Assembly (NCBI GenBank): GCA_034433965.1
Contig: DAOTZZ010000053.1
Location: 1-49,299 of the forward strand
From: Anaerolineae bacterium
GTDB lineage: Bacteria; Chloroflexota; Anaerolineae; Aggregatilineales; Aggregatilineaceae
DNA: 49,299 nucleotides
Direction: 5' to 3'
The notes beneath the pieces were generated by a model that did no database searches, was not told the origin of the DNA, and saw nothing but the letters and a program-made list of their open reading frames with translations. The position numbers were made by a program, and so were the translations under genes. This document shows positions 13,220-34,854 of the stretch, in pieces (positions within the stretch are counted from its first letter, which is position 1; every line of letters begins with the position of its first letter).

Positions 13220-14617
13220 TCAAATCTGCTCGAAGAAACGCGCGCGCTCCCAGCAGGTGACCGCTTCGTCGAACTTGCGCTGCTCGGTGCGCGCGAAGTG
13301 CAGGTAGTGCTCGACCACCTCCTCACCAAAAGCCGCGCGAGCCAGCTCGCTGCCCTCGAAGGCGGCAATCGCTTCGGGCAAGGTGCGGGGTACGCGCGGC
13401 AACTCCGCCGCCAGGTAGGCGTTGCCGGCGAACATGGGCGACGGCTCCGTCTGTCGCTCGATGCCATCTAGCGCCGCCGCCAGCAACGCAGCGAAGGCCA
13501 GGTAGGGGTTGGCGTCAGCGCCAGGGATACGGCATTCGACGCGCAGCGAGTCACCGCGCCCCACCACGCGGAAACCGGTGGTGCGGTTGTCGTAGGCCCA
13601 GGCGATGGCCGTCGGCGCGAACGATTCGGCCTGATAGCGCTTGTAGGAATTGACCGTCGGGGCGAAGAACAGCGCCAACTCGCGGGCGTGCGCCAGCATC
13701 CCGCCCACAGCCCAGCGAAACGTGGCGCTGGCCGTGACGGGCAGCCCCTCGGCCAGGGGGCGGTCTCCGGCAAAGAGATTGCGCGTGCCTCTTTTGTCCC
13801 ACAGGCTGAAGTGCAGGTGCATGCTGCTGCCGGCGTGATGCTCGTCCCACTTGGCCATGAAGGTGATCGCCAGCCCCTGTTGCCAGGCGATCTCGCGGGC
13901 CAGTTGCTTGAAGATGACGGTGCGATCGCCCATGGTCAGCAGGTCGCTGTAGCGGATGTTGATCTCTTCCTGGCCCGCGCCCCATTCGCCTTTGCTGAAC
14001 TCGACCGGCACGCCGGAGAGATGCAGATGCTGACGCATAGCGCCGAGCAGCCCTTCGACCTTGCTGCCCTGAAACAGGTGATAGTCCTCGATATAGGCCC
14101 CGAAGGTTTGTAGATCGTGGTAGTGTTTGGCGCGGGCGGAGTCGTAGGTCTCCTGGAAGACGAAGAATTCCAGCTCGCTCGCGCCCATCGGCAGCAAGTC
14201 CAGCGCCCGCGCCCGCTCGATCTGTCGGCGCAACACCGAGCGCGGCGCGATGCTCACCAGATCGCCGGTCATCTCGTTGCGCACGTCGCACAAGACCAGC
14301 GCCGACCGGTCGAGCCACGACGCGCGACGCAGCGTACTCCAGTCCACCGTCGCCCAGGCATCGCGGTAGCCCTGCTCCCAACTGGCGAAGCGATAGCCGG
14401 GCACCGGGTCCATGGCCAGGTCGCAGGCCAGCAGGTAGTCGCAGAAGTGCAGGCCGTGCTCCGCTGACTCCAGGAAGTAGCGGGCATCGTAGCGCTTGCC
14501 CAGCAGCCGCCCGTACAGGTCGGGGAAGGCTACCAGGACGGTTTCGATTTCCCCGCGCTGTACGGCTTCGGCCAGCGCCGCGCGACTCAGCAGACCGACC
14601 TGCTGCGACTCAGTCAT
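13220..14617 (-). CDS. glutamine synthetase-family ligase (gamma-glutamyl-amine synthetase-like, PuuA/GlnA3-4 type)
   Basis: GS catalytic-domain motifs: FSKGEWGAGQEEINI, MAKWDEHHAGSSMHLHFSLW, NSYKRY, RIPGADANPYLA. Its start overlaps the AOR stop by 8 nt. Confidence 0.85.
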   Translation of the reverse strand: MTESQQVGLLSRAALAEAVQRGEIETVLVAFPDLYGRLLGKRYDARYFLESAEHGLHFCDYLLACDLAMDPVPGYRFASWEQGYRDAWATVDWSTLRRASWLDRSALVLCDVRNEMTGDLVSIAPRSVLRRQIERARALDLLPMGASELEFFVFQETYDSARAKHYHDLQTFGAYIEDYHLFQGSKVEGLLGAMRQHLHLSGVPVEFSKGEWGAGQEEINIRYSDLLTMGDRTVIFKQLAREIAWQQGLAITFMAKWDEHHAGSSMHLHFSLWDKRGTRNLFAGDRPLAEGLPVTASATFRWAVGGMLAHARELALFFAPTVNSYKRYQAESFAPTAIAWAYDNRTTGFRVVGRGDSLRVECRIPGADANPYLAFAALLAAALDGIERQTEPSPMFAGNAYLAAELPRVPRTLPEAIAAFEGSELARAAFGEEVVEHYLHFARTEQRKFDEAVTCWERARFFEQI

Positions 14618-16529
14618 CGCCTGCCCCTTGCGGCGCGGTGCGCACGGCTTCCAGTTCGTCGGCCACCCAGCCGATGCCCAGTTCTTCCAGTTTGGCGCGG
14701 GTGGGCGTGCCGGTCGTCACATCCCAGCCGGCCATGGCGTAGTAGATGTCCTTGGCGCGCTCGAACTCTTCGACCGTCACATACAGGCCATCGCTCTTGC
14801 CGCCGCGCAACGGTTTGGTGAGCTTCTTGGGCAGCGTGTCCTGGTCGCGCCCGAAACCTTCACGGGCGTTGAAGGCGCGCAGCATGTTCAGGCGACGTTC
14901 GCCCAGCTTCTGCAACTCGAACACCGTCACCGACCAGCCTGTCACCGCGCGCACGAAGTCGGCGAGCTGTCGCAGGCTGAAGAGTTGCCAGTCTGGTCCC
15001 CACACGAATTGACACAGGCTGAGCGTATCGAGCGCGCTATAGGTGCACTGCGTGTAGAAGGCATAGCGCACCTTTTCGGCGTTGAGCACAGTGAGCGGCT
15101 GCGGGTTGAGCAGCCCCAGTTCGGCGATGCGCGGGTTGAACTCGGTGTAGCTGCCGTCGTGCTCGCTGGACATGTGATCCGCACCGAAAGGATTGACGCC
15201 GTAGATCAGCGCCAGGCTGCGCTTGACCTGCGGCATATGCGCGGGCATCTCCGATCCCTTGACGGTGATCAGCAAGTCCTCTGCCGCCGGGCCGAAGCGC
15301 CGCGCAGCGATGGCCGAACCGTCGGCCAGCACATCGCCGAACCCCTCGCGGCGGGCGATCATCTCGGTCAGGCGCACCATGGCCTCGGCGTTGCCAAAGC
15401 GCAGCTCCAGGCCGCCGGTGTCGGCCTGCGTGATGATGCCCTGCTCGTAGCAATCCATGGCCCAGGCGATCGTCGCTCCGCAGGTGATGGTGTCCATGCC
15501 GTACATGTTGCATAGCTGATTGGCATAGGCCACGGCCTTCAGGTCGGAAACACCGCAATAGGTGCCGAACGTGCTGAGCGTCTCGTATTCCGGGCCGCCG
15601 TAGATCGGGTTGAGGGGATAGGGGCCATCGTGACTTTCGACCACGCGCTTACAACGCACCGTACAGGCGTAGCACGTATCCGTCTCTTTGAGGATCGTCG
15701 CGCGCATGGTCTCGCCGCTGAGGGAGTCGTAGCCCTCGAAGACGCCGCTGGCGTAGTTGTACGCGGGCAGCCCGCCGCGACTCTGCTGCTTGCGGATAAG
15801 GGCCGTTGTGCCCAGCAAAGTCATGCTGCCCATGATGTCTTCGGTGTTGTCCGCGCCCCATTTGGCCAGCGCCTTGAACGCTTCGCCGTCGAAGACGGAT
15901 GGGCGCTGCCTGCCGCGCACGACGACCGCTTTGAGATTCTTGCTGCCCATCACCGCGCCCATGCCGGTGCGCCCGTTGGCGCGGTTGGACATGTTGATCA
16001 TGGCGGCGAAGCGCACGCCGCGTTCGCCCGCCGGGCCACACTGCAACACCTGCACGCGGCGGTCGCCCAACTCGTCCTCGATGGCGCGCTGCACGTCGTG
16101 GGTCACGCGCCCCCACAGGTGCGAGGCGTCGCGCAATTCGGCCTCACCGTCGTGAATCCACAGGTAGACGGGCCTTTCGGCGCGGCCCCAGATGACGATG
16201 CCATCGAAGCCAGCGAATTTCAGTTCGGCAGGCCAGAAGCCGCCGCACTGCGAATCGCCGACCATGCCGGTGAGCGGCGAGCGCGCGGTTGCGCACATGC
16301 GACTCTGGCCGGAGATAGGCATACCGGTCACCACGCTGTCCATCAGCGCCAGCGTGTTCTCCGGCGCGAGCGGGTCGGTGCCTGGGGGCGTGTTCTTGAG
16401 CAGGTAGTACAGCCCCATGGCGCTGCCCCCCATGTAAGTGCGGTAAAAAATCTCGTCCGGCTCCTCAACGGTCAGGCTGCCGGTGGTCAGGTTGACGTGC
16501 AGAATTTTGCCGTGATACCCGTAAGGCAT
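14610..16529 (-). CDS. aor: aldehyde:ferredoxin oxidoreductase (AOR family, tungsto/molybdopterin + 4Fe-4S)
   Basis: 639 aa. AOR-type N-terminus MPYGYHGKILHVNLTTG. 4Fe-4S cysteine motif CYACTVRC (C-x2-C-x3-C). AAGGAAGGA SD upstream of ATG 16529. Confidence 0.88.
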   Translation of the reverse strand: MPYGYHGKILHVNLTTGSLTVEEPDEIFYRTYMGGSAMGLYYLLKNTPPGTDPLAPENTLALMDSVVTGMPISGQSRMCATARSPLTGMVGDSQCGGFWPAELKFAGFDGIVIWGRAERPVYLWIHDGEAELRDASHLWGRVTHDVQRAIEDELGDRRVQVLQCGPAGERGVRFAAMINMSNRANGRTGMGAVMGSKNLKAVVVRGRQRPSVFDGEAFKALAKWGADNTEDIMGSMTLLGTTALIRKQQSRGGLPAYNYASGVFEGYDSLSGETMRATILKETDTCYACTVRCKRVVESHDGPYPLNPIYGGPEYETLSTFGTYCGVSDLKAVAYANQLCNMYGMDTITCGATIAWAMDCYEQGIITQADTGGLELRFGNAEAMVRLTEMIARREGFGDVLADGSAIAARRFGPAAEDLLITVKGSEMPAHMPQVKRSLALIYGVNPFGADHMSSEHDGSYTEFNPRIAELGLLNPQPLTVLNAEKVRYAFYTQCTYSALDTLSLCQFVWGPDWQLFSLRQLADFVRAVTGWSVTVFELQKLGERRLNMLRAFNAREGFGRDQDTLPKKLTKPLRGGKSDGLYVTVEEFERAKDIYYAMAGWDVTTGTPTRAKLEELGIGWVADELEAVRTAPQGAGDD

Positions 16530-18520: not shown

Positions 18521-19327
18521 ATGATCAGCAAAACCCTTTTAGTCATCTTCGACGGTTGCCGGCCCGATGCCCTGGCGCTGGCCCACACACCACATGTTGA
18601 CCGGCTCTGGCAGCAGGGAGCTTATACCTGGGATGCGCAATCAGTCGTGCCCAGCTACACCCTGCCCGCCCACATGTCCATGTTCCGCGGTGTGACGCCC
18701 GAACGGCACGGCGTGACCGACAACAACTTTCAGCCTTCGGCAGTGGACTTCCCCAGCTTCGTTGACATCGCGCATCAGCACCGACGGCAGACGGCCATGT
18801 TTTACAGTTGGGAGCAACTGCGCGACCTGTCGGCGCACGGCAGCCTGACCGTCAGCTATTGCCGCGACGGGGCTGTGACGCCGGACGCCGATCAGATCGT
18901 CGCCGCCCAGGCCGCCGATCTGCTGATCCGCGAGCGCCCCGATCTGGTGGTGGTGTACCTGGCCGAGTCCGACCTGGTGGGGCACGCCGCTGGTTGGATG
19001 TCGGCGGCTTATCTGCAGGCCATCGAGCGCATGGATCAGGCGTTGGGGCTGCTGCTGGCGACGCTCGACGAGGCCAATTTGCGCGACGAGTACACGGTGA
19101 TCTTTCTCTCCGATCACGGCGGACACGAACATACACATGGCACCGCTTCGCCCGAAGACCTGACCATCCCCTGGATCATCAGCGGCCCGGCGATCAAAGC
19201 GGGGCACGCTCTGACGACGCCAGTGCGCATCTACGACACCGCCGCCACCATCGCCCACCTGCTGGGCGTCCCCCGCCCCGACGTGTGGGAAGGGCAACCC
19301 ATCTGGGAGGCATTCGACCGTGACTAG
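18521..19327 (+). CDS. alkaline-phosphatase-superfamily phosphodiesterase/pyrophosphatase-like enzyme (short type)
   Basis: ORF 18125..19327 trimmed to ATG 18521 (MISKTLLVIFDGCRPD). Metal-ligand and nucleophile motifs: DGCRPD, PSYTLPAH, DLVGHAAG, SDHGGHEHTHG. Confidence 0.75.
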   Translation: MISKTLLVIFDGCRPDALALAHTPHVDRLWQQGAYTWDAQSVVPSYTLPAHMSMFRGVTPERHGVTDNNFQPSAVDFPSFVDIAHQHRRQTAMFYSWEQLRDLSAHGSLTVSYCRDGAVTPDADQIVAAQAADLLIRERPDLVVVYLAESDLVGHAAGWMSAAYLQAIERMDQALGLLLATLDEANLRDEYTVIFLSDHGGHEHTHGTASPEDLTIPWIISGPAIKAGHALTTPVRIYDTAATIAHLLGVPRPDVWEGQPIWEAFDRD

Positions 19328-20585
19328 GCTCCTGGCGTGGCGGCAACGGCTGCCCGCCGAACAAGCCCTGCTGATCATCGGCCTGGGTGTGGCGGTGTCG
19401 CTGCTGGGCGATCTGACGCTCTATGTGGTGTTGCCCACCCATACTGAAGACGCGGGGATTGCCCTGGCGAACGTCGGCCTGATGCTCTCCGCCAACCGCT
19501 TGATTCGCATCGTCCTCAACGGGCCGCTGGGCGTGCTGATCGAGCGTATTCCCCGGCGGCGCATCGCTGTCCCGGCGCTGTTCTGCGGCGCGCTCTCGTC
19601 GCTGCTCTACACTGTGCCGGGCTTCTGGCCGCTGTTGATCGGGCGGCTGTTATGGGGCATTTCGTGGGCGGGCATCTGGCTCAGCGCCAGCACCATGGCG
19701 CTCGATCTCTCCACCTTCGCCAATCGGGGACGTTTCGTCGGGCGTCTGCAGATGTGGTTCTTTATCGGCTCAGGGGGCGCGTCGCTGGCCGGAGGAGTGC
19801 TCACCGACTGGTTGGGCTACAGCGCGGCGCTGCGCGTCTGCTCGCTGATCGCGCTGGCAGCGGCGGTCGGCTGGTGGTTAGCGCTGCCGGAGACCCAACC
19901 GGCGCGTACCCCCGCCAGGGCTAGCGGCTCCCAGACCCTGCCGGGCACACCTGTGCCTCCGCCCAACAGGCTGTTGCCGCTGGCGATGGCCATCGCCTTG
20001 CTGGGCGTCAACTGGCTGATCTTCATCGGCATTCTCGGCGCGGTGTTGCCCTTGCTGCTCGAAGAGCGCATCGGCGAGACTGTGCAGATAGCCGGGACGA
20101 TCATCTACCTGTCCACCTTCACCGGCGCGATGGCCGCCGCCAGCCAGGTGCTCAGTCTGGTGGCGTCGCCCCTGGCGGGGTGGCTTTCTGACCTCAGTGG
20201 CGATCGCTGGCGATTGGTGATCGGCGCGCTGATCCTGGGCGTGGCTGCCATGGCGCTCACGGCAGGCGGGACGGGCGCAGTGGTCGTGACAGCGATCATG
20301 CTCGGCGCGATCGCCACCAGTGTGCTGCAAACACAGGTGATGACGCTGGTCGGCGACTATGGCGGGGATAACAATCGGGGGCGCATCCTGGGCATCATCA
20401 ATACGGTGGGCGACGTAGGCAGCGCCGCCGGCCCGTTGATCGCCTATGCGCTGCTGCCGCTGGTACATATCGGCGGGTTGTTCTGGCTGGCAACCGCTAT
20501 CCTGGGCGCAGCCCTGCCCGGCGCCTGGTGGGTTGCCCGGCAGGAAGCGCAGCGCCTGCGCCCGGCCCATACGCCGCCGGTGTAG
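19320..20585 (+). CDS. MFS transporter
   Basis: About 12 hydrophobic segments with an MFS loop motif (ERIPRRR). The GTG start overlaps the upstream stop by 8 nt. Confidence 0.85.
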   Translation: MTRLLAWRQRLPAEQALLIIGLGVAVSLLGDLTLYVVLPTHTEDAGIALANVGLMLSANRLIRIVLNGPLGVLIERIPRRRIAVPALFCGALSSLLYTVPGFWPLLIGRLLWGISWAGIWLSASTMALDLSTFANRGRFVGRLQMWFFIGSGGASLAGGVLTDWLGYSAALRVCSLIALAAAVGWWLALPETQPARTPARASGSQTLPGTPVPPPNRLLPLAMAIALLGVNWLIFIGILGAVLPLLLEERIGETVQIAGTIIYLSTFTGAMAAASQVLSLVASPLAGWLSDLSGDRWRLVIGALILGVAAMALTAGGTGAVVVTAIMLGAIATSVLQTQVMTLVGDYGGDNNRGRILGIINTVGDVGSAAGPLIAYALLPLVHIGGLFWLATAILGAALPGAWWVARQEAQRLRPAHTPPV

Positions 20586-20613
20586 GGGTTTCATCGCAGA
20601 GGCGCGGAGACTT

Positions 20614-20715
20614 CAGAGCGCGTTATGCTTTTCTCTCGCCTTCAATCCCCTGTCCCCTGTGAGACCGTTAGGTTGTAGGGGCGGGCTTCGAAACCCGTCC
20701 CTACCGGTTTGCTTT
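20614..20715 (-). repeat. composite intergenic repeat: 3' module of the 40975/44119 element family plus a GTAGGGGCGGGCTTCGAAACCCGTCCCTAC hairpin
   Basis: AGAGCGCGTTATGCTTTTCTCTCGCC matches the left ends of the elements at 40975 and 44119. A 30-nt hairpin lies at 20675-20704. The repeat abuts the stop codon of the FmdE-like gene. Confidence 0.6.
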
Positions 20716-21336
20716 TCACGCCAGGGGATCGTAGTAACGATCTCCGGCGCAGGCGCGGCACAGCACCGTGCCCTCGTGTACGACCTCGCGCTCGTTGATG
20801 ATCTCCTCGCCGCAGGTCTCGCAGGTCACGCGCCGCCCCGGTTTGCTCAGCAGCGCTTCCAGCGACACGCGCAATGTCACCGGCTGAGCGATCAGCAACT
20901 CCTCGTCGGGCATGATCTGGTAGGCGAGCAACTGAGCCTGCCAGCGACTGCGCGCATCTGGCGCGTAGGCAGAGGCCAGCGCTCGACTGTGCGGGCTGGG
21001 GACGATGCGGAAGGCGCGTTCTGTCTGCGAGTCCACCAGCGTCACGGCTACCTTGCCGTAGTCTATCACGCGCAGTGTGCGGTGCCCGACGGTGCAGCCA
21101 GTCGCCACGGCGACGCCATCGGCAGCGCAACCGTCCGTCTCTACGAAGGCCAGCAGCCGCTTGCCAGTCTGCGGCACGTCCAGCCCCAGCAAGCGCCCGC
21201 CCAGCAGTCCCATGCGCACACCGAGCACCTGGCGCGGGCAGAGATGGGCGTGTAGCGCCGCGCACTGTTCCAGCAGGGCAGGCAGACGCCTGTCGGCCAG
21301 GCGCGACGTGGGGGCGAACAGAGTATCGGTCACCAA
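20716..21336 (-). CDS. FmdE/FwdE-family protein with C-terminal zinc ribbon
   Basis: HLCPRQVLGVRMG-type FmdE motif. C-terminal CETCGEE...CRAC. TTG start at 21336 preceded by AAGGAG. It begins 11 nt after the Rieske stop. Confidence 0.7.
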   Translation of the reverse strand: MVTDTLFAPTSRLADRRLPALLEQCAALHAHLCPRQVLGVRMGLLGGRLLGLDVPQTGKRLLAFVETDGCAADGVAVATGCTVGHRTLRVIDYGKVAVTLVDSQTERAFRIVPSPHSRALASAYAPDARSRWQAQLLAYQIMPDEELLIAQPVTLRVSLEALLSKPGRRVTCETCGEEIINEREVVHEGTVLCRACAGDRYYDPLA

Positions 21337-21347
21337 GATATGCTCCT

Positions 21348-21809
21348 TCAGGCGATCAGCCGGTCGTCGGGGTGTGTCTCGCGGTCGCGGTGAATGACCA
21401 GCGCGCCCGTCGCGTCCAGTTCCACCACCAGGTAGCGCAGGCCGCGCGGCGCTGGCCCGCTGAGCCGTTCACCCTGGGCGTCGTAGCGGCTGTTGTGACA
21501 GGGACACTCGAAACCAAGCAGTGGCGCGCTTTGCCCGTCGCCGACGGCGCGCACCAGGCAGCCCAGGTGTGAACAGACCGCGTCCAGGGCATAGAAACCG
21601 AGTTCGTCGCGCACCAGATAGGCGCGCGCCTCGCGCACGAAGGTCACGCCGGGCGCGGCGTAGTCTTCCGGACGCCCGGCGGTTGCGGCTTCGGGTGGCT
21701 GCGGCTGCGACGAGTGCGCCACCATCTGAGCAGCTTCGCCCGCGGCCAGCGCTCCTGTCGCGGCCAGCAACGCTTTGCGCAGTCCCCCGAACAGTTCGCG
21801 GCGGCTCAT
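21348..21809 (-). CDS. Rieske [2Fe-2S] protein with Tat signal (Rieske/cyt b complex subunit)
   Basis: Box I CSHLGC and box II CPCHNS. Tat-like MSRRELFGGLRKALLAATGALAAG. Start is ambiguous: 21809 chosen, and the 21851/21935 alternatives overlap the upstream gene. Confidence 0.8.
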   Translation of the reverse strand: MSRRELFGGLRKALLAATGALAAGEAAQMVAHSSQPQPPEAATAGRPEDYAAPGVTFVREARAYLVRDELGFYALDAVCSHLGCLVRAVGDGQSAPLLGFECPCHNSRYDAQGERLSGPAPRGLRYLVVELDATGALVIHRDRETHPDDRLIA

Positions 21810-21837
21810 CGGTTCCACGTCCGTATCTCCTGGCAAC

Positions 21838-23190
21838 TCAGTCTCGTTCATAGGCATGGCACTCATGGCAATAGCGGCTCTCCTGCTGATCGGGGCGCTG
21901 CTGGCACGCCGATCCCAGCACCAGGGGCACGTCATAGCGCTGCCCAGTGGCTTTCATGGTCAGTTCCAGCCGGTCACCGCGCCAGACGACGTGTGGCAAC
22001 GGCTCGCCCAGGCTGGTCATCAAGATAGTATCGCCGACCTGCAGGTCGAGGTAGGGGTTGAGGAAAGCCAGCCGCAGCGCCAGATCGTCCGGGTCGGTGA
22101 TGGTATAGGCGAGCGGGGGGGCGTCGAGCGTCCCGTGACAGGTGCGGCACTCGGTGTAGCGGGCGTCGCGCTGATTGCTGTAGAGATAGCCGTCGCCCAT
22201 CGTTTCGCGCCGCGTGTGGCAGTCCACGCAATCCAGTTCCCACTCGCACAGGGTGAATTGCCCGATCGGTTGGTAGTATTCGTGTACGCGCCGCTCGATG
22301 GCGTTCAGGTAGTCTGGCGCGGGGATGTCCGTCCGCGGCACGAAGGTCATGGTCGGCAACTCGTAATTGCCGCGGTTGTGGCAATGGTTACACTGCGTAT
22401 AGGGGATGGCCGTGGTCAGTTCGTGACGGCGCATATGCCCCGGTTCGTCGCGCGGCAGGGTGGGATCGCCGCCCTTGTACAGCCCGTCGTTGTCATAGAG
22501 CACATGGCACGCCGAGCAACCCGTCGCGCGGTAGAAATAGGGGGCCTGGATCGCCTCGGCGCTCAGGTGACAGGTCAGGCAATTCGCGGCGAACTGCTGT
22601 ACCAGCGGCGGCGCATCCGGCGCGGGAGCGAAAGCGGCCAGCGCCTCCACCACCGGGCGACCGCCATTGTCTGGCGGACCCTCGTAGCTCTGCACGGCAT
22701 GTATCCCAAAGCGGGCTACGTCGTCGGGCTGCACACCAAAAGCGCGCAGCACATAGGCGATCGCGCCGGCATAGGTCGCCTGGATGCTGCGCTCGACGCG
22801 CGGCAGATGATCGCGGTGATCGGCGGGCGCGCCGCTGTGACAGGCGCTGCCGCCGCAGGTCTGCGCGGCCACAGCGAGATCGCCGGGGTTGCGGATCAGG
22901 CCAGTATGCGCCAGGTCAGCGTCCAGGGCGACCCCCACCCCGCCGTGACAGGCGACGCAGCCCACCACCTCGACCGGATGCGAAGGGCTGATCTCCTCGA
23001 TACCCCAGTGACAGGTCAGGCATAACTCGCGCTGACCGGTCAGGCTAGGCACGACGGCACGCACCTGCGGCGCATCCTGGTAACGCCGCCAGGGGGCGGA
23101 GCGTTCGCGCAGCCAGGCTCCCACGACAACCAGCAGCAGCCCCGCCGCCGCCAGCAGCGGCCAGAGTTCCGTGCGCGTCGGTCGCCTCAT
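21838..23190 (-). CDS. membrane-anchored multihaem c-type cytochrome (8 CXXCH + 1 CX4CH)
   Basis: ORF 21838..23949 trimmed to ATG 23190 (MRRPTRTELWPLLAAAGLLLVVVGAW), which overlaps the cyt b stop as ATGA. Haem motifs: CLTCH, CVACH, CGGSACH, CLTCH, CSACH, CNHCH, CVDCH, CRTCH, CHECH. Confidence 0.85.
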   Translation of the reverse strand: MRRPTRTELWPLLAAAGLLLVVVGAWLRERSAPWRRYQDAPQVRAVVPSLTGQRELCLTCHWGIEEISPSHPVEVVGCVACHGGVGVALDADLAHTGLIRNPGDLAVAAQTCGGSACHSGAPADHRDHLPRVERSIQATYAGAIAYVLRAFGVQPDDVARFGIHAVQSYEGPPDNGGRPVVEALAAFAPAPDAPPLVQQFAANCLTCHLSAEAIQAPYFYRATGCSACHVLYDNDGLYKGGDPTLPRDEPGHMRRHELTTAIPYTQCNHCHNRGNYELPTMTFVPRTDIPAPDYLNAIERRVHEYYQPIGQFTLCEWELDCVDCHTRRETMGDGYLYSNQRDARYTECRTCHGTLDAPPLAYTITDPDDLALRLAFLNPYLDLQVGDTILMTSLGEPLPHVVWRGDRLELTMKATGQRYDVPLVLGSACQQRPDQQESRYCHECHAYERD

Positions 23191-24203
23191 CGCAGCGCTC
23201 CTCGCACCGTGAGCGCGACCACGGCCAGCAGCACGGCGACGAAGACGATCTGCGCCCGCCGTCCTGCTGTGTTGAACCAGTGCCCTTCGCCTTCTGTCGC
23301 CCGATCCAGGGCGTAGGGCAGGGCAGCCAGCACAGCGAGCACAAGCAGCGGCGCGATCACGCCGGCCAGCAGGGGACTGGCGAAGCGCAGCGCTTCCTGT
23401 ACGCCCAGGAAGAACCAGGGAGCGGCGCTTTCGTGCGTGGGGGGCGAGGTGAGATCGGCGGGCGGGGCCAGCGGAGCATCCCACAGCAGGCTGCTGAGGC
23501 CCAGCGCGGCCAGGACGATCAGCGTCGCCAGCCCTTCGACGCGCACCAGCGCCCGCCGCGGCAGACGTGGCGCGTGCGCGGCATGGCTGATCCCGCCGTC
23601 GCGCCGGACGCGCCAGATGTGCCACACGCCCAGAAAAAGCAGGGCGATCGTCAGCCCGGCGATGTGCCAGCCGTAGAAGCGGACAGGGGTGGCCGCGCCA
23701 ACCGCCTCGCCGCCCACGACTAGCCGGTAGAGTGTCTCGCCTGCCAGCGGCACTTCGCGCAGCAGGTTGGTGCCCACCAGCAATGCCCAGCTCACGTCGG
23801 CGTCCCAGCGCAGCACCAGACCGGTGAAGTCCAGCAGAATTACCAGGACGAGCAGCCCCAGGCCGATCAACCAGTTGGCACGGCGACGCTTGTAGCCGCC
23901 GGTGAAGACGACGCGGGCCATGTGCAGTGTGGCGGTGATCACCAGCCATTGCCCGGCCCAGTAGTGCAGATTGCGCACGAACCAGCCGAAGGGCGCTTCG
24001 AAGGTGATTTCGGCGACGGAGCTATAGGCGCGCGCCAGCGACGGCTCGTAGAGGAACATCAGCAGCGCGCCCGTCACCAGCAACACCAGCACCAGCAACA
24101 CGCTGATCCCGCCCAGCCCGAAGGTATAGGTGAACGAAGCCGAGCGGGCGGGAATCGTCGCCGGGTGCAGGTGTTCGAAGAAGTTGGCGCGGGAGTCACC
24201 CAT
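23187..24203 (-). CDS. cytochrome b (b6-like N-terminal domain fused to subunit-IV-like C-terminal domain)
   Basis: The helix-B His pair is spaced 13 (NLHYWAGQWLVITATLHM). The helix-D His pair is spaced 14 (WHIAGLTIALLFLGVWH). The Qo-site PEWY-equivalent reads APWF in PWFFLGVQE. Confidence 0.85.
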   Translation of the reverse strand: MGDSRANFFEHLHPATIPARSASFTYTFGLGGISVLLVLVLLVTGALLMFLYEPSLARAYSSVAEITFEAPFGWFVRNLHYWAGQWLVITATLHMARVVFTGGYKRRRANWLIGLGLLVLVILLDFTGLVLRWDADVSWALLVGTNLLREVPLAGETLYRLVVGGEAVGAATPVRFYGWHIAGLTIALLFLGVWHIWRVRRDGGISHAAHAPRLPRRALVRVEGLATLIVLAALGLSSLLWDAPLAPPADLTSPPTHESAAPWFFLGVQEALRFASPLLAGVIAPLLVLAVLAALPYALDRATEGEGHWFNTAGRRAQIVFVAVLLAVVALTVRGALR

Positions 24204-24577
24204 TGGCTCTTGCGACGCTCAGCGATTGGCGATCGGTGTGTGCAATCTTGCCCTGTTTTCCGTGCAGATAGGCTTGTGCCAGCCCGCCGCTATATGGAGC
24301 GGCAAGGCTGAGATGGCGCACAGACGAAAGCAGGCACGAAAGATTGTAGCAGAGTTGGGGGCAACCGGTGATCCCTGGCTGTGCTTGGCGAGATTCACCG
24401 CCGAGACGGCTGCTCTGCCTTGCTTTGCTTCACCCCCAGCCCTGTTTCCTCTCCATGTTGCAGACTAACAAGTTAGCGCGGATACCAGCGGCGGGTTGGC
24501 CCCCTCGTTGAGCGTTCAGGGGCGTATTGCAATATCCCCTACCTCGACCTTCGCCGCGACAATGTGCCGTGCCCGGC

Positions 24578-24610
24578 AATACACAAAGAGAGCGCCACCC
24601 ACGGCGCTCC
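24578..24610 (-). terminator. candidate intrinsic terminator of the DUF4012 gene
   Basis: On the minus strand, GAGCGCC-GTGGGT-GGCGCTC is followed by CTTTGTGTATT. The hairpin lies about 50 nt past the stop at 24656. Confidence 0.5.
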
Positions 24611-24655
24611 GCAATCCCAGGCTACCATATCCCCTCGTGCTGCTACAGGGCGCCA

Positions 24656-26686
24656 TCAGCGCGTATAGACCACCTCGATTGTCCGGTCGGAGGTCAGCGT
24701 CAGGCGGAACTCCAGTACCGGCTGATCCAGGCTATAGCTGGCGGCGGGCTGCGGGTCGGTGTAGACCGTGCGCGCGCCCGCGGGCAGGGTGATCTGCACG
24801 TTGAGCGGCTCGGCCAGCGTGCCCGCCTGTTTCTGTGCCAGCAACTTGTAGCGATAGTAAGGGCCTTCCTGGATCACCAGGGGAGGCGTGCGGTAGAGAA
24901 ACTGATAGCGCTCGCTGTGATTGTAGTCCACGGCGGCCCGCGCCACGAACGCGGTATGCGCCTCCCATGGCACGACGACCGGTTGCTGAGGCAGGTTGCT
25001 GGTCTCGTTGAGCGTGCTCTGGGCGGGCACGAAGACCTGTACCAGGCTGCGATAGTCCAGGTCGCCGTGCGCTGGAGCGACGGCGGGGTCGTTTTCGGCC
25101 ACCCGTTCCGAGTAATCGTAGGCGATGGCCAGACGACTGCTCAGCGAGCCGTCGTCCTGGATCGTCACGTCGTAAGTGAACTGCCGCAGCACCGAACGGT
25201 TGGCCTTGTTGCCCAGGTTGGCTTCGGCTACCAGCAGATAGTCGTGATCCTGAGCGGGTTTCTGGTCGCCCAGCCAGCCCAGCACGCGCATCGCCTCGTT
25301 GAGACCCTCGTCGGTGAAGTAGAGCATGATGTGCTTTTCCAGCAGCGCTTTGAGCAACGCGCCGCGCAGTTGCACACTTTTTTCCTGATCCACCCGCTGC
25401 CAGTTGTCGAAAATCTGGCGGTAGACGGCGGCCACGAATTCCTTGTGTTCGCCTTCGCTGGCTGCGCGAATGGTGTAGACCGTCTCGCGGAAGTTGGCGC
25501 TGTTGACGGTGATGCCGTAGTCGGGCACGTAGACGCTGCCCAATTCGGCCAGGATGTACTCAAACGCCACCAGGTCAATGCCGATCACGCCGTCTACCGG
25601 GCTGTGCGGATTGCCGCCGTTGTCATAGAACCAGGCGGCCATGCGCGCCGTAGTGGGGAAGTCTGGCGACCAGCTCGAATCCCAGGCGGCGTAGATGGGC
25701 TGCTGATAGGGAATCCACCACTCTGGAATCTGTACCTGATCAGCCATGGTCAGCGGCGGCGGGTTGGGGCTGTTGGGCGTGGTGGCGCGATAGTCATAGT
25801 CCATCACGCGCCCGTTGCGCACGGTCATCCAGCCGTAGGTGCTCAGATAGCCGCCCGCAGGGCGCAGCTCGTCGTTGTTCTGGGCCAGGATCAGGTAGGT
25901 TTGTGTCTCCTCCAGGCCCAGGGCGGCGGTCAGCAACTCCGGCGAACGGAGCAACACGCGGTCCATGTCGGTGAGCAGTTGATAGGTGCTTTCCAGGCCA
26001 TCTACCGTAGCCAGCAGGCCGGGCGAGACCTTGGTGGGGTCAAGGCGCTCGATGATGGCTTTGGCCGCGTCCAGATGTTGTCCGGCGCGGGTGAAGCGTC
26101 CCCGACCCAGGCTCAGTAACTCCACCACGCGCTCGCCGGACGAGAATTGTGTGGCGACGCGCTCCTCTTCTTCGCCCTGCGTCAGGAAGAACAACGCCGG
26201 TTGCAGGCCGGTGAGCAGGTTATCGGCGGCCAGGGTGAGTTCCTGGGCCGCGTCGAGCATGTTGAAGGTCGTTTGCAGATCGCCGTTCAGGCGGGTAAAG
26301 GGGCGCAGGAAGAGCGTTTGACGGCGGGCGCTGCTCAGGCTGGCGTTCAGATCGCGCACGCCTGCCTGCAAGTGCTCGAAGTCGGAGAGCGTCAGGTCAG
26401 CGCCAGACTTGCGGCCTACGGTCGTCCAGATGCGATCCAGGCTCTCCCACGAGTTTTCGACCTGCGTGCGGGCGTTCATGGCGAGAATGAGCGCTCCCAT
26501 GACGATCGCCGCCGGAATGGTGATCGCCATCAGCAGCAGCACACGCCAGTTGTAACGCCCCAGCCGCCGCGTCAACTTGCGATACCAGCGTCGCTTGGTG
26601 CGCCGACGTCGGCGCCGCTTTTCGCGAAAGAGTTCTTCGGGCGCATCCAGCGGCTTGGGCAGCGTGGGAGTTTCCAGATCGGGCAT
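24656..26686 (-). CDS. DUF4012 domain-containing membrane-anchored extracytoplasmic protein
   Basis: ORF trimmed to ATG 26686 (MPDLETPTLP...). Arg-rich cytoplasmic N-terminus, one TM helix, and the signature NNDELRPAGGYLSTYG that I associate with DUF4012. Confidence 0.7.
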   Translation of the reverse strand: MPDLETPTLPKPLDAPEELFREKRRRRRRTKRRWYRKLTRRLGRYNWRVLLLMAITIPAAIVMGALILAMNARTQVENSWESLDRIWTTVGRKSGADLTLSDFEHLQAGVRDLNASLSSARRQTLFLRPFTRLNGDLQTTFNMLDAAQELTLAADNLLTGLQPALFFLTQGEEEERVATQFSSGERVVELLSLGRGRFTRAGQHLDAAKAIIERLDPTKVSPGLLATVDGLESTYQLLTDMDRVLLRSPELLTAALGLEETQTYLILAQNNDELRPAGGYLSTYGWMTVRNGRVMDYDYRATTPNSPNPPPLTMADQVQIPEWWIPYQQPIYAAWDSSWSPDFPTTARMAAWFYDNGGNPHSPVDGVIGIDLVAFEYILAELGSVYVPDYGITVNSANFRETVYTIRAASEGEHKEFVAAVYRQIFDNWQRVDQEKSVQLRGALLKALLEKHIMLYFTDEGLNEAMRVLGWLGDQKPAQDHDYLLVAEANLGNKANRSVLRQFTYDVTIQDDGSLSSRLAIAYDYSERVAENDPAVAPAHGDLDYRSLVQVFVPAQSTLNETSNLPQQPVVVPWEAHTAFVARAAVDYNHSERYQFLYRTPPLVIQEGPYYRYKLLAQKQAGTLAEPLNVQITLPAGARTVYTDPQPAASYSLDQPVLEFRLTLTSDRTIEVVYTR

Positions 26687-26873
26687 CGAGCCAGTCCCTC
26701 GATTCACAACAACACACCCCAGATAACCATTGCTGTCAGCGACGCAGCTACAATAACCAGAATCGGCGCAAAAGCAAAATGGGGCGGGCCAAGCGGGGGG
26801 AAAACCGCCCGGCTCATTTGTGAAGGTTTTGTGAAAGGCGTATAAGAGCACCAGTATGTTGGACAAAAGGTAG

Positions 26874-26902
26874 TTGCCTGCAGACGACAAACCTTGTACT
26901 AT
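26874..26902 (+). promoter_or_regulatory. candidate sigma-70-type promoter (TTGCCT-17-TACTAT)
   Basis: The -35 at 26874-26879 and the -10 at 26897-26902 have exact 17-nt spacing, in the least GC-rich part of a 686-nt intergenic region. It would give a ~460-nt leader for 27373..29631. Confidence 0.3.
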
Positions 26903-27372
26903 AAGAGCATAATGTGTGCATCATAGCACATTGACGATTTCTGCGAGCACGGATGACGCACTCTGTGGCAGGGGAGGTGTGTCTTGCCGTCTCGCGGCTT
27001 AGAATGCCTGGTGGGGTCAGGGGGATAACCATATAGACGGTCTCCTTTAAAGCGGCCCAGAGGTGTTCTCTTTGAGCGCCTTCTTGTGCGATTGCCCCCT
27101 TGTAGCCTGGTCGCATCCCACAGGGCGTCTTCTGAACACTATGCGGGTGGTCTCTCTCTGCGTAGGGGAGGGGTGTTTTGACAGATCGAAGTCTGTCGTG
27201 ACGCTCGACACTCCAGAGTGTTGAGATAACGGGGTGTTTCATGTATGAGGGGGAAGAGAGCGCTCCATCGCACAGTCCGCTGACAAGGTTCCAACATTCA
27301 CCACGTTCGCGCCGCGTGGGCAAAGGCCACTGTCATCAGCCGGGGCGTGACAGGCTGGCAAGGAGTTATCTT

Positions 27373-29688: not shown

Positions 29689-29717
29689 CTGAGGTTCGTT
29701 GTCGGTTGTGGAGAGAG

Positions 29718-30028
29718 TGGGCCCGGCAGGATTCGAACCTGCGACCGACCGGTTATGCTTCCCAGCTACAGCTTTCGCTGCCCCTTTCGGGTTTGTGGGC
29801 TGGACTGTCTCTTCACCCCTCGTCTGAGGGGGCCTGCCGTACAGTCTCTACACCTTCCCCAGGTCATGGGGCTTGGCTCGGGATTACCATGTCTGCCGAC
29901 GAAGGCTTCCCCGAATTTGACAGGTTTTCCCCTGGAAATTACTCTCCAGAGCGCCCATCCTGCAACAAATCCTATCGAGAGAACCTGTTGCTTTGAGCCG
30001 GCTGCTCTAACCGCTGAGCTACGGGCCC
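29718..30028 (-). tRNA. tRNA with anticodon CAU (elongator type; acceptor stem resembles tRNA-Ile2/lysidine) interrupted by a group I intron
   Basis: Exon 1, 30028-29996: GGGCCCGTAGCTCAGCGGTTAGAGCAGCCGGCT. Exon 2, 29757-29718: CATAACCGGTCGGTCGCAGGTTCGAATCCTGCCGGGCCCA. Joined they form a 73-nt cloverleaf with a 7-bp acceptor, GCTC/GAGC D-arm, GCCGG/CCGGT anticodon stem, loop CTCATAA, 5-nt variable loop and GCAGG-TTCGAAT-CCTGC T-arm. No CCA is encoded. Confidence 0.85.
29758..29995 (-). ncRNA. group I intron (IC3-like bacterial tRNA intron), 238 nt, no ORF
   Basis: The intron follows U33 and ends in G. Core strings: CCTGTCAAATTCGGGGAAGCC, CCCGAGCCAAGCC, GAAGGTGTAGAGACTGTACGGCAGG, CCCCTCAGACGAGGGG, AAGAGACAGTCCAG, CCCGAAAGGG, CAGCGAAAGCTG. 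These match remembered Azoarcus tRNA-Ile and cyanobacterial tRNA-Leu introns. Pairings are consistent: P3 CCTG/CAGG, P4 TTCGGGG/TCCCGAG, P7 GACTGT/ACAGTC. Confidence 0.8.
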
Positions 30029-30068
30029 TGAACAGAGCGCCCAGCCGATCGCCGGGCGCTGCTGTGAG

Positions 30069-30139
30069 AGCGGGCAACGGGACTCGAACCCGTGACGACA
30101 GCTTGGAAGGCTGTAGTGTTACCGCTACACCATGCCCGC
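30069..30139 (-). tRNA. tRNA-Gly (anticodon UCC)
   Basis: Minus strand: GCGGGCATGGTGTAGCGGTAACACTACAGCCTTCCAAGCTGTCGTCACGGGTTCGAGTCCCGTTGCCCGCT. This is a 71-nt cloverleaf with anticodon loop CTTCCAA, close to E. coli tRNA-Gly(UCC) as remembered. Confidence 0.9.
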
Positions 30140-30680: not shown

Positions 30681-31271
30681 TCACGAGAGCGCCAGGATGG
30701 TGATCACCAGGACGGCGAAGGGAAAGGACGAGGCGAACACCGCCGCGTACCAGCGGCTATCGTAGCGCAGGTGCATGAAGTAGAGCGCCACAAGCAATAC
30801 TTTGCTGGTCGAGAGCGCCACCAGCGGCCCGGTGACCGGGAAAGGCAGGTCGAATACGGTCAGCAGCACCTCAATGACTGTGATTACGGCCAGCGCGATC
30901 GCCACGCTCACATAGGTCAGGCGGTGCGAGTGCCCGTGCGCGCGCGCCCGCGGCCAGAAGTTGGCTCGCAGCGCAACCAGCAGCCCTGGCGTCGCGCGTT
31001 TGGCGCGGGCGGCGACCTGTAGTTCGTCCAGGGTGACGGCGTCAGCGCGCCACCGCGGGTGCACCAGCGGACGATCGGGCAGCAGGCGCAGCACCAGCCA
31101 CAAGGGGATCAGCGCGATCAGGCTGCCGATGCTCCCCAGGACAAGGCCCGCCAGCGTCGCCAGCCACTCGTTGATGCGTTTGCGCTCGGCGATCAGCGGC
31201 GTCAGCACGCCGCCCACGAACGACCCGGCGGCTGCCCACAGCGTCACCCACAACAGCGTGTCGGAATTCAT
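30681..31271 (-). CDS. cytochrome c oxidase subunit IV-like protein (COX4_pro-type C-terminus) with ~110-aa N-terminal membrane extension
   Basis: The C-terminal 80 aa (HSHRLTYVSVAIALAVITVIEVLLT...SKVLLVALYFMHLRYD) fit bacterial subunit IV. The gene is last in the cta operon. GGAG SD upstream of ATG 31271. Confidence 0.7.
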   Translation of the reverse strand: MNSDTLLWVTLWAAAGSFVGGVLTPLIAERKRINEWLATLAGLVLGSIGSLIALIPLWLVLRLLPDRPLVHPRWRADAVTLDELQVAARAKRATPGLLVALRANFWPRARAHGHSHRLTYVSVAIALAVITVIEVLLTVFDLPFPVTGPLVALSTSKVLLVALYFMHLRYDSRWYAAVFASSFPFAVLVITILALS

Positions 31272-31290
31272 AATTGCTCCGTCCCCCCGC

Positions 31291-32115
31291 TCACTCGATC
31301 AGATAGATGATCGTGAACAGCACGATCCACACCACGTCCACGAAGTGCCAGTACAGCCCGAACAGCTCGACCCCCATGTTGTCGTTGGCCGAGTAGTGTC
31401 CGCGCCGGGCGCGCAGCAACAGAATGACCAGCCAGCCGACGCCGATCAACACGTGCAGCCCGTGAAAGCCGGTGGTGGCGAAGAAGGCCGTGCCGAAGAT
31501 ATTGCTGGCCTTGATGCCCTCGTGCATCAGTTCGTACCATTCGAACGCCTGAATGCCCAGGAACATCGCCCCGAAGAAGATCGTCAGCCCCATCCAGTTG
31601 AAGAACACCCGCCGGTCGTCCGACTGAATGGCTTCCAGGCCCATCACCACGGCGAAGCTGCTGACGATGAGCACCGAGGTGCCCAGCGTCGCCAGGGGCA
31701 GGCTGAGCACTTCGTGCGCCGCGCGGAACACTTCCGGATGGTCTACCTTGAAGCGGAGGAAGGTGCCGATCAGCGACCCGAAGAACAGCACTTCCGACGC
31801 CAGGAAGGCCCACATCGCCAGCTTGCGGTGATCCAGCTCGGCGAAGAAACGCCCGTGCAGATCGATCTCCGGAAAGCTGGCCATGCGCAGCAGCCCGAAG
31901 AGGGTGACAGGTACTCCCAGCACCAGCAGCGGCGGCGCGATCAGCCCGATGACCGCCAGCGTGGCTCCAACGCCCACGATGAAGGGGGCCAGGCTGGGCG
32001 GCGGCAGGTGCACCTCTTCGGGTTCGGCGGGGCCCGCCGGAGCGACTTCCGGGCAGGGCACCGCCTCGATCATTTCTTCGGCATCGCGCGGAGCGAGCAG
32101 TTGCGCGTCAGACAT
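31291..32115 (-). CDS. ctaE: cytochrome c oxidase subunit III
   Basis: Typical C-terminus: ELFGLYWHFVDVVWIVLFTIIYL. Multiple TM helices. Position directly after subunit I. Confidence 0.9.
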   Translation of the reverse strand: MSDAQLLAPRDAEEMIEAVPCPEVAPAGPAEPEEVHLPPPSLAPFIVGVGATLAVIGLIAPPLLVLGVPVTLFGLLRMASFPEIDLHGRFFAELDHRKLAMWAFLASEVLFFGSLIGTFLRFKVDHPEVFRAAHEVLSLPLATLGTSVLIVSSFAVVMGLEAIQSDDRRVFFNWMGLTIFFGAMFLGIQAFEWYELMHEGIKASNIFGTAFFATTGFHGLHVLIGVGWLVILLLRARRGHYSANDNMGVELFGLYWHFVDVVWIVLFTIIYLIE

Positions 32116-32118
32116 GCG

Positions 32119-33753: not shown

Positions 33754-33789
33754 TGTCAATTTCTCTCCCACTCAAACGGACTCGCGCGC

Positions 33790-34854
33790 TTAATGCGACA
33801 GCAGGTAGGCGATGATGTCGGCCAGGCCCTGCGCGTTCAGTTTCTCGCCGTAGTCGGCGGGCATGATCTGACAGTTGAAGCCTTCGGCCTGCACGGCGCA
33901 CGGCACCAGGATCGATTCGCGCAGGTAGCTTTCGGGTGTGTAGCCGTCCGCGGCGCGGGCATCGCGGGCCATGGCAGCCAGCGACGGGCCAACGCCAGGC
34001 TGTTCGCCATGACAACTGACGCAGCCCAGTTCGGCGAAGTGCTGCTCACCGCGCGCCACATCGCCCGCGGGTAGCGGCGAAGTCAGGTCGGTCCCAATGG
34101 GCACAAAACGCCCCAAAGACGCCATTTGTTCGGCCAACCAGGCATCGAATGCCGCTGGTTCCAGCACCTCTACGTCTATGAGCATGTCGTAGTGCAGCGT
34201 ACCGCAGTATTCGGCGCAGTTGCCGGTATAAAGACCCGTCTTGGGCACGTTGAGCCACATGGTGTTGGTGTAGCCGGGAATGGCGTCCACTTTGCCCGCC
34301 AGATCGGGCACCCAAAAACTGTGCTGTACATCGGTGGAGGTGATTTCCAGCAGCACGTTGCGGTTGGCAGGGATGGTCAGCTTGCGTGTGGTGATCACCC
34401 CCGTCTCTTCACCCGCGCCCAGGAAATATTCGTAGTCCCAGTTGAACATGTAACCGGTCACGTGCACGGTCAGGTCGGGGGTGGTATCCCCGTTGTCGGC
34501 CTGAACCTGATAGCGAGTGGTCATAAAGCGAGCAGTCAGGATGAAGATGACGGCGATGATCAGCAGCGACAACACCGTCCAGGTGATCTCCAGGGGACGG
34601 TGTCCCTCGATCTGCTCTGGCATCTCATCGTGTCGCCGACGACGGTAACGAATGATGGCATAGAGGATCAATCCCTCTACCAACAGGAAGATGGGCACAG
34701 AAATCCAGAACAAGACGTTGAACAGGTCGTTGATGTCGGTGCGGGACGCGCCGCCGGAGACCGGGCCGTGCGCCCAGACCCTGGCAGGGAGCGCCAGCAA
34801 CATCAGCGCCAGGGCTGCCAGCCCCGGAACATAAGTGAAGACGGATCGTTTCAT
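33790..34854 (-). CDS. ctaC: cytochrome c oxidase subunit II with fused C-terminal cytochrome c domain (caa3 type)
   Basis: CuA motif HSFWVP...CAEYCGTLHYDM. C-terminal haem motif CVSCHG. Signal/TM helices at the N-terminus. Confidence 0.92.
   Translation of the reverse strand: MKRSVFTYVPGLAALALMLLALPARVWAHGPVSGGASRTDINDLFNVLFWISVPIFLLVEGLILYAIIRYRRRRHDEMPEQIEGHRPLEITWTVLSLLIIAVIFILTARFMTTRYQVQADNGDTTPDLTVHVTGYMFNWDYEYFLGAGEETGVITTRKLTIPANRNVLLEITSTDVQHSFWVPDLAGKVDAIPGYTNTMWLNVPKTGLYTGNCAEYCGTLHYDMLIDVEVLEPAAFDAWLAEQMASLGRFVPIGTDLTSPLPAGDVARGEQHFAELGCVSCHGEQPGVGPSLAAMARDARAADGYTPESYLRESILVPCAVQAEGFNCQIMPADYGEKLNAQGLADIIAYLLSH

Follow-up and report, generated by a model that had tools for sequence, protein, structure and literature searches.

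The 49-kb stretch of Anaerolineae DNA analysed here (49,299 nucleotides, GC about 64%; hereafter the window, to which all coordinates refer unless another locus is named) carries on its minus strand, at 20716-24203, a four-gene operon encoding a fused cytochrome b, a 450-aa multihaem cytochrome c, a Rieske protein with a twin-arginine translocation (Tat) signal and an FmdE-like protein, in the order and at the places given by a first-pass annotation. Between them, the predicted proteins have all the cofactor sites that a Q-cycle enzyme needs. The reading that I favour, at a probability of roughly 55%, is that they form a variant Rieske/cytochrome b menaquinol oxidoreductase that has a nonahaem c subunit, runs in the forward direction and feeds a caa3 oxidase, a PhsA-like molybdoenzyme system, or both. 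Comparative genomics points to the PhsA-like system as a partner, and it is possible that the complex feeds an acceptor other than the oxidase.

According to this reading, menaquinol would be oxidised at the Qo site. One electron would pass through a high-potential Rieske cluster to the haem chain of the multihaem protein on the outer face of the membrane, and the other would cross the membrane via haems bL and bH and arrive at a Qi site that has no haem ci. The chain of nine haems would then deliver electrons to partners outside the membrane. The first of these would be the caa3 oxidase, reached by way of the cytochrome c domain that its subunit II carries; the second would be the PhsA-like system, made up of a molybdenum (Mo) subunit, a four-cluster iron-sulfur (FeS) subunit, a b561- or NrfD-type membrane subunit, YeeE-type transporters and rhodaneses. 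The ATG of the multihaem gene overlaps the stop codon of the cytochrome b gene (ATGA), as had been annotated, and by sequence the two genes are translationally coupled. This overlap and the conserved adjacency of the genes are the linkage evidence bearing on a putative membrane complex with bifurcated quinol oxidation.

Cofactor sites of the putative complex

The cytochrome b matches Pfam Cytochrome_B at 4.6e-34 and, among NCBIfam models, ExtP (219.5 bits, 3.9e-65) ahead of b6 (139 bits). Its C-terminal third matches ExtQ at 2.3e-9 and, weakly, Cytochrom_B_C (0.0011, below the gathering score), while the best solved matches of its N-terminal domain are to PetB (8e-31). Hydropathy gives six clear transmembrane (TM) segments, which together with the amphipathic helix B make about seven. 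The b6-type histidine spacing of the annotation was recovered, 13 between H80 and H94 and 14 between H180 and H195. On alignment to cyanobacterial PetB the four residues coincide with the b6 ligands His86, His100, His187 and His202, and they are invariant in all homologues examined (33 + 120). The cysteine that binds haem ci is absent, FGLGG being aligned with YCLGG of PetB, and homologues conserve this position as F/W/L-G. At the PEWY position the Qo motif reads APWF (residues 261-264), as annotated. By sequence, then, the cytochrome b has the two b-haem sites as well as a Qo loop.

APWF is not peculiar to the multihaem version: the motif occurs in 120 of 121 cytochrome b homologues, those encoded in conventional bc operons included. 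It differs by one residue from APWY, the motif of a cytochrome b clade that includes Chloroflexi and for which reverse running, with input from the high-potential side, has been suggested (Kao and Hunte, PMC4122944). Since conventional operons with monohaem cytochromes c share it, APWF marks no special direction. As a marker of special function it was rejected, and its distribution is that of a lineage trait, not of a sign of unusual function.

The conventional operons in question, from sister Chloroflexi (loci L062-L064), encode the same cytochrome b family together with a Rieske protein and two monohaem cytochromes c, and contain no multihaem gene. The annotated replacement of a mono- or dihaem c by the nonahaem protein therefore holds in this comparison. 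Since the window cytochrome b belongs to this ordinary Chloroflexi bc family, it would be of a working complex-III type, with the multihaem protein in the slot of the c subunit. The closest relatives of the window are metagenome-assembled genomes (MAGs) of Anaerolineales UBA2029 (95%) and Aggregatilineaceae (91% on cytochrome b), both Anaerolineae of the Chloroflexota.

The multihaem cytochrome has the annotated eight CXXCH motifs, at residues 57, 78, 204, 225, 267, 321, 348 and 441, and the single CX4CH motif, CGGSACH, at 112. Across 120 homologues (50-98% identity) hardly any variation is seen at the nine motifs, which hence do not represent a chance pattern; the core motifs persist in relatives of 25-39% identity from other lineages. 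A single N-terminal TM helix (residues 9-27) precedes the haem region, and a small beta domain is C-terminal. In the 120 homologues His71, His95, His128, His252, His256, His442, Met281 and Met331 are conserved outside the motifs, so that the nine haems have eight candidate distal ligands between them; conservation of Lys413 is 97%. Two further cysteines, Cys315 and Cys429, lie outside the haem motifs. They do not vary within the Chloroflexi family and are also present in a Nitrospirae homologue; among distant ExtM-like homologues Cys315 is absent and Cys429 is retained in some, and the idea that they mark a catalytic His/Cys haem was dropped. The pair could form a disulfide or provide a lineage-specific ligand.

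Over residues 51-446 this protein matches the NCBIfam ExtM model (155.5 bits, 1.6e-45), and neither Pfam nor NCBIfam returns a match to cytochrome f. The family is large, with more than 1,800 matches in a set of 5.8 billion proteins and with 217 clusters at 50% identity (E <= 1e-30), among which are numerous longer, ExtM-like proteins (600-750 aa). It occurs in the mats of hot springs, in sediments and in activated sludge.

The Rieske protein shows all the hallmarks of the bc type that can be read from its sequence: the Tat motif SRRELF, the cluster-binding motifs CSHLGC and CPCHNSRY, both disulfide cysteines and a GPAP Pro-loop. It matches the Pfam Rieske model at 1.7e-9, its best NCBIfam matches are to PetC, and the AioB model matches weakly (0.004). 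Its best matches in the PDB are of the bc/b6f type, the closest being the anammox proteins Kuste4569 and Kustd1480 of Kuenenia (9rk4, 1.9e-16; 9rk3, 6.4e-12), in keeping with the annotated likeness to anammox complexes. After CPCH the window protein has the S-Y signature, which by a rule quoted by Kao and Hunte (PMC4122944) goes with a potential above +260 mV, and the Kuenenia Rieske proteins were measured at more than +300 mV (PMC12954380). The window Rieske is accordingly predicted to be of high potential, above +260 mV. Its start is ambiguous, as four in-frame ATGs occur, at 21866, 21857, 21851 and 21809.

The FmdE-like protein combines a PF02663 domain (7.9e-30) with a TraR-type zinc ribbon. 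In relatives its gene either adjoins the genes of a PhsA-like molybdoenzyme or comes after the Rieske gene, and the protein is probably an accessory or maturation factor.

Gene neighbourhoods of the multihaem-Rieske pair

Genome loci found through the multihaem protein, 61 in number, were compared by tblastn, by clustering of open reading frames and with a hidden Markov model of cytochrome b; 37 of them have full 6-kb flanks. The multihaem gene is co-conserved with the Rieske gene, which follows it immediately in 44 of the 61 loci, and only partly with the bc-type cytochrome b gene, which immediately precedes it in 34 of the 61 and in 17 of the 37 with full flanks. FmdE is found nearby in 22/61. 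In a neighbour-joining tree, multihaem proteins from loci with cytochrome b and those from loci without it form separate clades. The window protein falls in the former, and the Rieske protein, the FmdE-like protein and the multihaem-Rieske-FmdE gene order of the window resemble the latter.

A PhsA-like molybdoenzyme is the more constant neighbour, its Mo and FeS genes lying within 6 kb of the multihaem gene in 32 of the 37 full-flank loci. The Mo subunit scores 567-621 bits on the model of PhsA (thiosulfate reductase; cut-off 694) in all architectures tested, which argues for one conserved enzyme of the Psr/Phs type. With its Tat signal, its Fe4S4 domain and MobA and TorD-like genes nearby, this exported subunit looks catalytically competent. 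The FeS subunit is of the four-cluster, HybA/HmcB-like kind, and in most such loci a membrane subunit, either NrfD/HybB-like or b561/FdnI-like, is encoded next to the two. Sulfur-related companions also recur, namely two half-size YeeE/YedE-type "sulphur transport" proteins and multi-domain rhodaneses with a signal peptide, as do an ArsR-family regulator, a trihaem cytochrome, MobA, the TorD-like chaperone and a VKOR/thioredoxin protein. By gene neighbourhood, then, the multihaem-Rieske pair is tied more tightly to the PhsA-like molybdoenzyme than to cytochrome b. I found no literature interpreting this association.

The multihaem gene lies inside PhsA-like clusters in loci that include L003, L013-L016, L022, L043 and L097-L099. 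In a Thermoflexales genome, for which independent gene calls with Pfam labels were used, ten co-directional genes run ArsR-(trihaem)-YeeE-YeeE-Mo-FeS-b561-cytb-multihaem-Rieske. The ten-gene operon of L099 (L099:2813-11727) has the order ArsR-(trihaem)-YeeE-YeeE-Mo-FeS-b561-monohaem c-multihaem-Rieske, and its bc-type Rieske protein apparently serves the molybdoenzyme system without the usual cytochrome b. L098 encodes a split cytochrome b and a Rieske protein divergently, 7-8.6 kb away. Distant metagenomic loci (25-34% identity) have the arrangement Rieske-cytb-ExtM-like cytochrome, some with Mo and FeS genes. A metagenome scan centred on cytochrome b returned mostly near-identical or very distant loci, plus L068.

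No Mo, FeS or NrfD homologue stands beside the operon in the window or in relatives of at least 88% identity (L001, L002 and L065-L067). In L068, the closest relative outside this group of 88-98% (cytochrome b 74%), Mo-FeS-b561 lies directly upstream of cytb-multihaem. The public run X2 (2.3 Mb, with a single organism label) shows zero differences to the window over 8 kb (19300-27300) and therefore represents the same organism. At similar depth it further contains contigs that share 80-90% identity with the L068 genes for Mo, FeS and b561 (L068:1-4949). Most probably, then, genes for these three parts of the PhsA-like system are present in the window organism, unlinked from the operon. Run X2 could also be used to reconstruct the full respiratory gene set of the organism.

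The potential of the Rieske protein limits what such a system could do. From standard potentials, a Rieske cluster at +260 mV or above cannot drive the reduction of thiosulfate or polysulfide. If the molybdoenzyme is the partner, either the acceptor is therefore a chalcogen compound of high potential, such as tetrathionate, selenite or tellurite, or electrons from the oxidation of a substrate enter the haem chain. The first possibility would fit the genetics of the Geobacter ext cluster, which is described below, and the second would fit the proposal that the APWY clade operates in reverse. For the delivery of electrons by a Rieske/b complex to a periplasmic molybdoenzyme there are precedents: the Qcr complex of Campylobacter is listed in the literature as feeding Nap and Tor, and the selenate reductase of Thauera is a further case.

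The second possibility can be extended to the whole complex. The PhsA-like enzyme would then oxidise reduced sulfur, or something similar, in the periplasm and pass electrons through the multihaem and Rieske proteins to the oxidase and, by way of a reversed Rieske/b complex, to menaquinone. The closeness of APWF to the APWY of a Chloroflexi-including clade thought to run backwards (PMC4122944) speaks for this, as do the high-potential Rieske signature, which suits an acceptor for oxidations, the ArsR-family regulators, YeeE-type sulfur transporters and extracytoplasmic rhodaneses of the neighbourhoods, and the presence of the region in metagenomes of hot springs and microbial mats, settings that offer reduced sulfur. 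I nevertheless consider it unlikely, because APWF also occurs in conventional monohaem-c operons, and because reverse flow is known mainly from chemolithoautotrophs and the window gives no indication of autotrophy. Nor is any enzyme of the PhsA/PsrA type known to work oxidatively.

The first-pass annotation had proposed a metal, a nitrogen oxide or an extracellular compound as the acceptor. No porin, outer-surface cytochrome, nir/nor/nos, HAO-like or metal gene recurs in the 61 loci, whereas the PhsA-like enzyme and sulfur-trafficking genes do. A nine-haem protein that wires quinol oxidation to minerals, electrodes or a nitrogen-oxide reductase is in my view very improbable, even if a long haem chain suits long-range transfer and the Geobacter ext cluster, to which the nearest named families ExtM, ExtP and ExtQ belong, is upregulated on Fe(III) oxide (PMC5877670). 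The genetics of that cluster concern selenite and tellurite, not iron, and the window protein is anchored once, at its N terminus, and shows nothing that would span the cell wall. A Chloroflexi iron reducer, Ardenticatena maritima, does have a membrane-bound cytochrome, ARMA_0580 (430 aa, 7 CXXCH, a single TM helix), that was immunostained on intact filaments (PMC5808234). Its membership in the multihaem family could not be confirmed; it is not among the best 120 relatives of an Ardenticatenaceae family member.

Several observations weigh against the favoured reading, that of a forward-running Rieske/b complex with a nonahaem c subunit. The family is so far known from sequences; an AlphaFold2 model of the multihaem protein (pLDDT 76) found no match in the PDB by Foldseek (best E 1.1), nor did a 60-sequence profile find a solved relative, so that no structural analogy is claimed. 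For the related APWY clade there is the reverse-running suggestion of Kao and Hunte (PMC4122944). The hydrophobic stretch that follows the Tat motif of the window Rieske is weak (maximal 19-aa hydropathy 1.33, as compared with 1.5-1.7 in cytochrome-b-linked relatives and 0.1 in relatives without cytochrome b), and the protein is up to 58% identical to Rieske proteins of loci without a bc-type cytochrome b versus 35-42% to those of cytochrome-b loci. It is therefore perhaps not a canonical tethered iron-sulfur protein: a stable TM anchor is not assured, and it may be a cleaved periplasmic protein instead. A bc-type cytochrome b is missing within 6 kb of the multihaem gene in 27 of the 61 loci, and within 10 kb in L099. 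The molybdoenzyme has a quinone-reactive subunit of its own, which leaves the need for a Rieske/b complex unexplained. Finally, tblastn at 1e-3 detected no Mo, FeS or NrfD homologue anywhere in the 49-kb window, and the attribution of run X2 to one organism is based on depth and on the single run label.

The 27 loci without a nearby cytochrome b indicate that the multihaem-Rieske pair can work, or at least be encoded, without one. One possibility, which I advance tentatively, is that the pair is the invariant unit, the high-potential module of an undescribed PhsA-like respiratory system, and that the window shows the form in which it is joined to a complex-III cytochrome b. This would cover the Anaerolineae and apparently other phyla, the YeeE-type transporters and rhodaneses would be part of the system, and some organisms, such as that of L099, would run it with no bc-type cytochrome b.

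At the other extreme, the operon might simply encode the organism's (only) menaquinol:cytochrome c oxidoreductase, with the nonahaem protein replacing two monohaem cytochromes c, the caa3 oxidase as its sole acceptor and a historical or regulatory link to the molybdoenzyme. The cytochrome b family is that of ordinary Chloroflexi bc complexes, the oxidase genes are only 6.5 kb away, and the window is devoid of a molybdoenzyme. The closest named relative of the cytochrome b is the Aggregatilineaceae MAG, and the Aggregatilineales are the order that I take Ca. Thermofonsia to be. An aerobic chain in which a "bc complex" was inherited together with an A-family oxidase has been described for Ca. 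Thermofonsia (Ward et al., PMC5826079). This simpler explanation is nonetheless somewhat doubtful. The multihaem gene goes with the PhsA-like genes much more closely than with any gene for an oxidase, oxidase clusters do not recur in the 61 neighbourhoods, and FmdE is kept in the operon. In several relatives (L004, L052, L023 and L044) the multihaem gene shares its operon with monohaem c genes, so that the multihaem protein is there an addition and not a replacement. Moreover, Chloroflexi RBG-9 is reported to have two Rieske/b complexes besides alternative complex III (ACIII).

The distinction matters since genome papers usually count such an operon as "the bc complex" when inferring aerobic respiration. 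If the true partner is a PhsA-like sulfur/selenium enzyme, metabolic reconstructions of Anaerolineae need revision, and the system would be a tractable model of a Q-cycle enzyme wired to a periplasmic molybdoenzyme via a haem chain.

Transcription and surroundings of the operon

The features of the operon and of its flanks are collected in Table 1. The hairpin beyond the FmdE-like gene is the likely 3' end of the operon. Since hairpins are present at both flanks, the four genes look like one transcription unit, and the layout suggests that this cytochrome b operon has its own promoter at some point within 24204-24588; a sigma-70 consensus was not detected in that interval. Small contigs from a microbial-mat metatranscriptome fall on the Rieske, multihaem and cytochrome b genes, which is weak evidence that the operon is expressed in situ. 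At the DNA level the region is found in metagenomes of sediments, hot springs and microbial mats.

Table 1. Features of the Rieske/cytochrome b operon and its surroundings in the window
Feature	Position	Strand	Remarks
Cytochrome b, fused b6-like and subunit-IV-like	23187-24203	-	338 aa; domain and motif evidence
Membrane-anchored nonahaem cytochrome c, ExtM-related	21838-23190	-	450 aa; motif and profile matches
bc-type Rieske [2Fe-2S] protein, twin-arginine signal	21348-21866	-	start uncertain
FmdE-like protein with C-terminal TraR/DksA-type C4 zinc ribbon	20716-21336	-	
GC-rich hairpin in the gap where the FmdE-like and MFS transporter genes converge	20675-20704		consensus scan only
Terminator-like hairpin just after the upstream DUF4012 gene	24589-24610	-	
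caa3-type haem-copper oxidase (context, outside the operon)	30681-34854	-	subunit order II, I, III, IV

The caa3 oxidase is present as annotated, with a cytochrome c domain fused to its subunit II, and it is a plausible electron sink for the complex. The remaining genes of the window are housekeeping and regulatory ones. An aldehyde:ferredoxin oxidoreductase (AFOR) of the tungsten type is encoded at 14610-16529 (minus strand), about 4 kb from the FmdE-like gene, and in L099 an AFOR gene (L099:15265-17082) likewise lies about 4 kb from the multihaem-Rieske genes. This proximity may be a coincidence or may relate to the FmdE-like protein, as one that belongs to Mo/W enzyme operons.

Further along, a tRNA-Leu(CAA) gene at 29717-30028 (minus strand) has its anticodon loop split by a 238-nt group I intron, as detected by ARAGORN with introns allowed and by Rfam (Intron_gpI, 59 bits at 29778-29977). 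DNA contigs from other runs join 29746 to 29994/29996 and hence point to intron-less alleles in relatives. A tRNA-Gly(TCC) gene at 30068-30139 (minus strand) adjoins it.

Comparison with known Rieske/b and molybdoenzyme systems

Rieske/b complexes linked to multihaem cytochromes are known from gene clusters of Geobacter and anammox bacteria and from the APWY clade, itself uncharacterised; so far no such complex has been isolated whole or matched to a partner. The annotated likeness to Geobacter holds as remote homology. The window proteins do not reach the NCBIfam equivalog cut-offs (219.5 versus 290 bits for ExtP, 37.6 versus 150 for ExtQ, 155.5 versus 800 for ExtM), and on these scores they are remote homologues of ExtP, ExtQ and ExtM, not equivalogs. 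In G. sulfurreducens the cluster extHIJKLMNOPQS encodes the 12-haem ExtM, the 10-haem ExtN, the Rieske protein ExtO, ExtP, ExtQ, a rhodanese and a porin; the module ExtM-ExtN-ExtO-ExtP-ExtQ corresponds to GSU2935-2932 and GSU3620, genetic evidence implicates the cluster in the reduction of selenite and tellurite, and Fe(III) oxide upregulates it (PMC5877670). Both systems combine a Rieske protein, a b6-type cytochrome b, a subunit-IV-like part and multihaem cytochrome c, both are biochemically uncharacterised, and the rhodanese ExtH of Geobacter has counterparts in the rhodaneses beside relatives of the window multihaem family. They differ in that the cytochrome b is fused in the window and split in Geobacter, and in that one 9-haem protein stands in place of the 12-haem ExtM and the 10-haem ExtN. 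The 49-kb window contains no ExtH rhodanese, ExtI porin, ExtKL, ExtN or ExtS cytochromes, nor does it share ExtJ, whereas it has an FmdE-like gene. Linkage to a PhsA-like molybdoenzyme is seen in relatives of the window operon and not in the ext cluster.

The anammox complexes Kuste4569-4574 and Kustd1480-1485 of Kuenenia stuttgartiensis resemble the window complex in their b6-like cytochrome b, in the replacement of cytochrome f by a multihaem c, which is hexa- or octahaem in anammox, and in a high-potential Rieske protein (above +300 mV), the closest solved relative of that of the window. Unlike them, the window operon and its neighbour genes encode no NAD(P) oxidoreductase subunit and no hexa- or octahaem HAO-like cytochrome, and the cytochrome b is fused. 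For the multihaem subunits the likeness is one of arrangement.

With the conventional Chloroflexi bc complexes the window complex shares a bc-type Rieske protein and a fused cytochrome b of 337-338 aa that is 55-60% identical and has APWF, the four histidines and no haem-ci cysteine. In two of their operons (L062:7902-11017 and L064:8141-11014) the monohaem cytochromes c are paralogous and C-terminally anchored, and are encoded with a Rieske protein and a fused APWF cytochrome b. The window has instead one N-terminally anchored nonahaem protein, its gene order differs, and the conventional operons are without FmdE. Their Rieske protein has a clear TM anchor and the signature S-F, that of the window S-Y. 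With the b6f complex and the b6c complex of Firmicutes the common points are the 13/14 histidine spacing, the PetB match and the subunit-IV-like C-terminal part. The window complex departs from these in lacking the haem-ci cysteine, cytochrome f and a cytochrome c fused to subunit IV, in having b6 and subunit IV fused in a single 338-aa polypeptide, and in reading APWF instead of PEWY or PDWY.

Two further comparisons concern mainly the relatives. Like ACIII (ActABCDEF) and Qrc, they combine an N-terminally anchored multihaem cytochrome c with a molybdopterin-family subunit, a monohaem c, a four-cluster FeS subunit and an NrfD-type membrane subunit. Their Mo subunit is however PhsA-like, not ActB- or QrcB-like, the Rieske protein and cytochrome b are extra, and the window itself is without such Mo genes. 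Arsenite oxidase (AioAB) offers a parallel in that a bc-type Rieske protein exported by Tat is encoded alongside a Mo-bisPGD enzyme; among the relatives the likeness is most striking in L099. Here the Mo enzyme belongs to the Psr/Phs family, with FeS and membrane subunits of its own, and is not AioA. If the multihaem-Rieske pair is indeed the invariant unit, it would add to arsenite oxidase a second example of a molybdoenzyme served by a bc-type Rieske protein, in this instance one for sulfur or selenium compounds.

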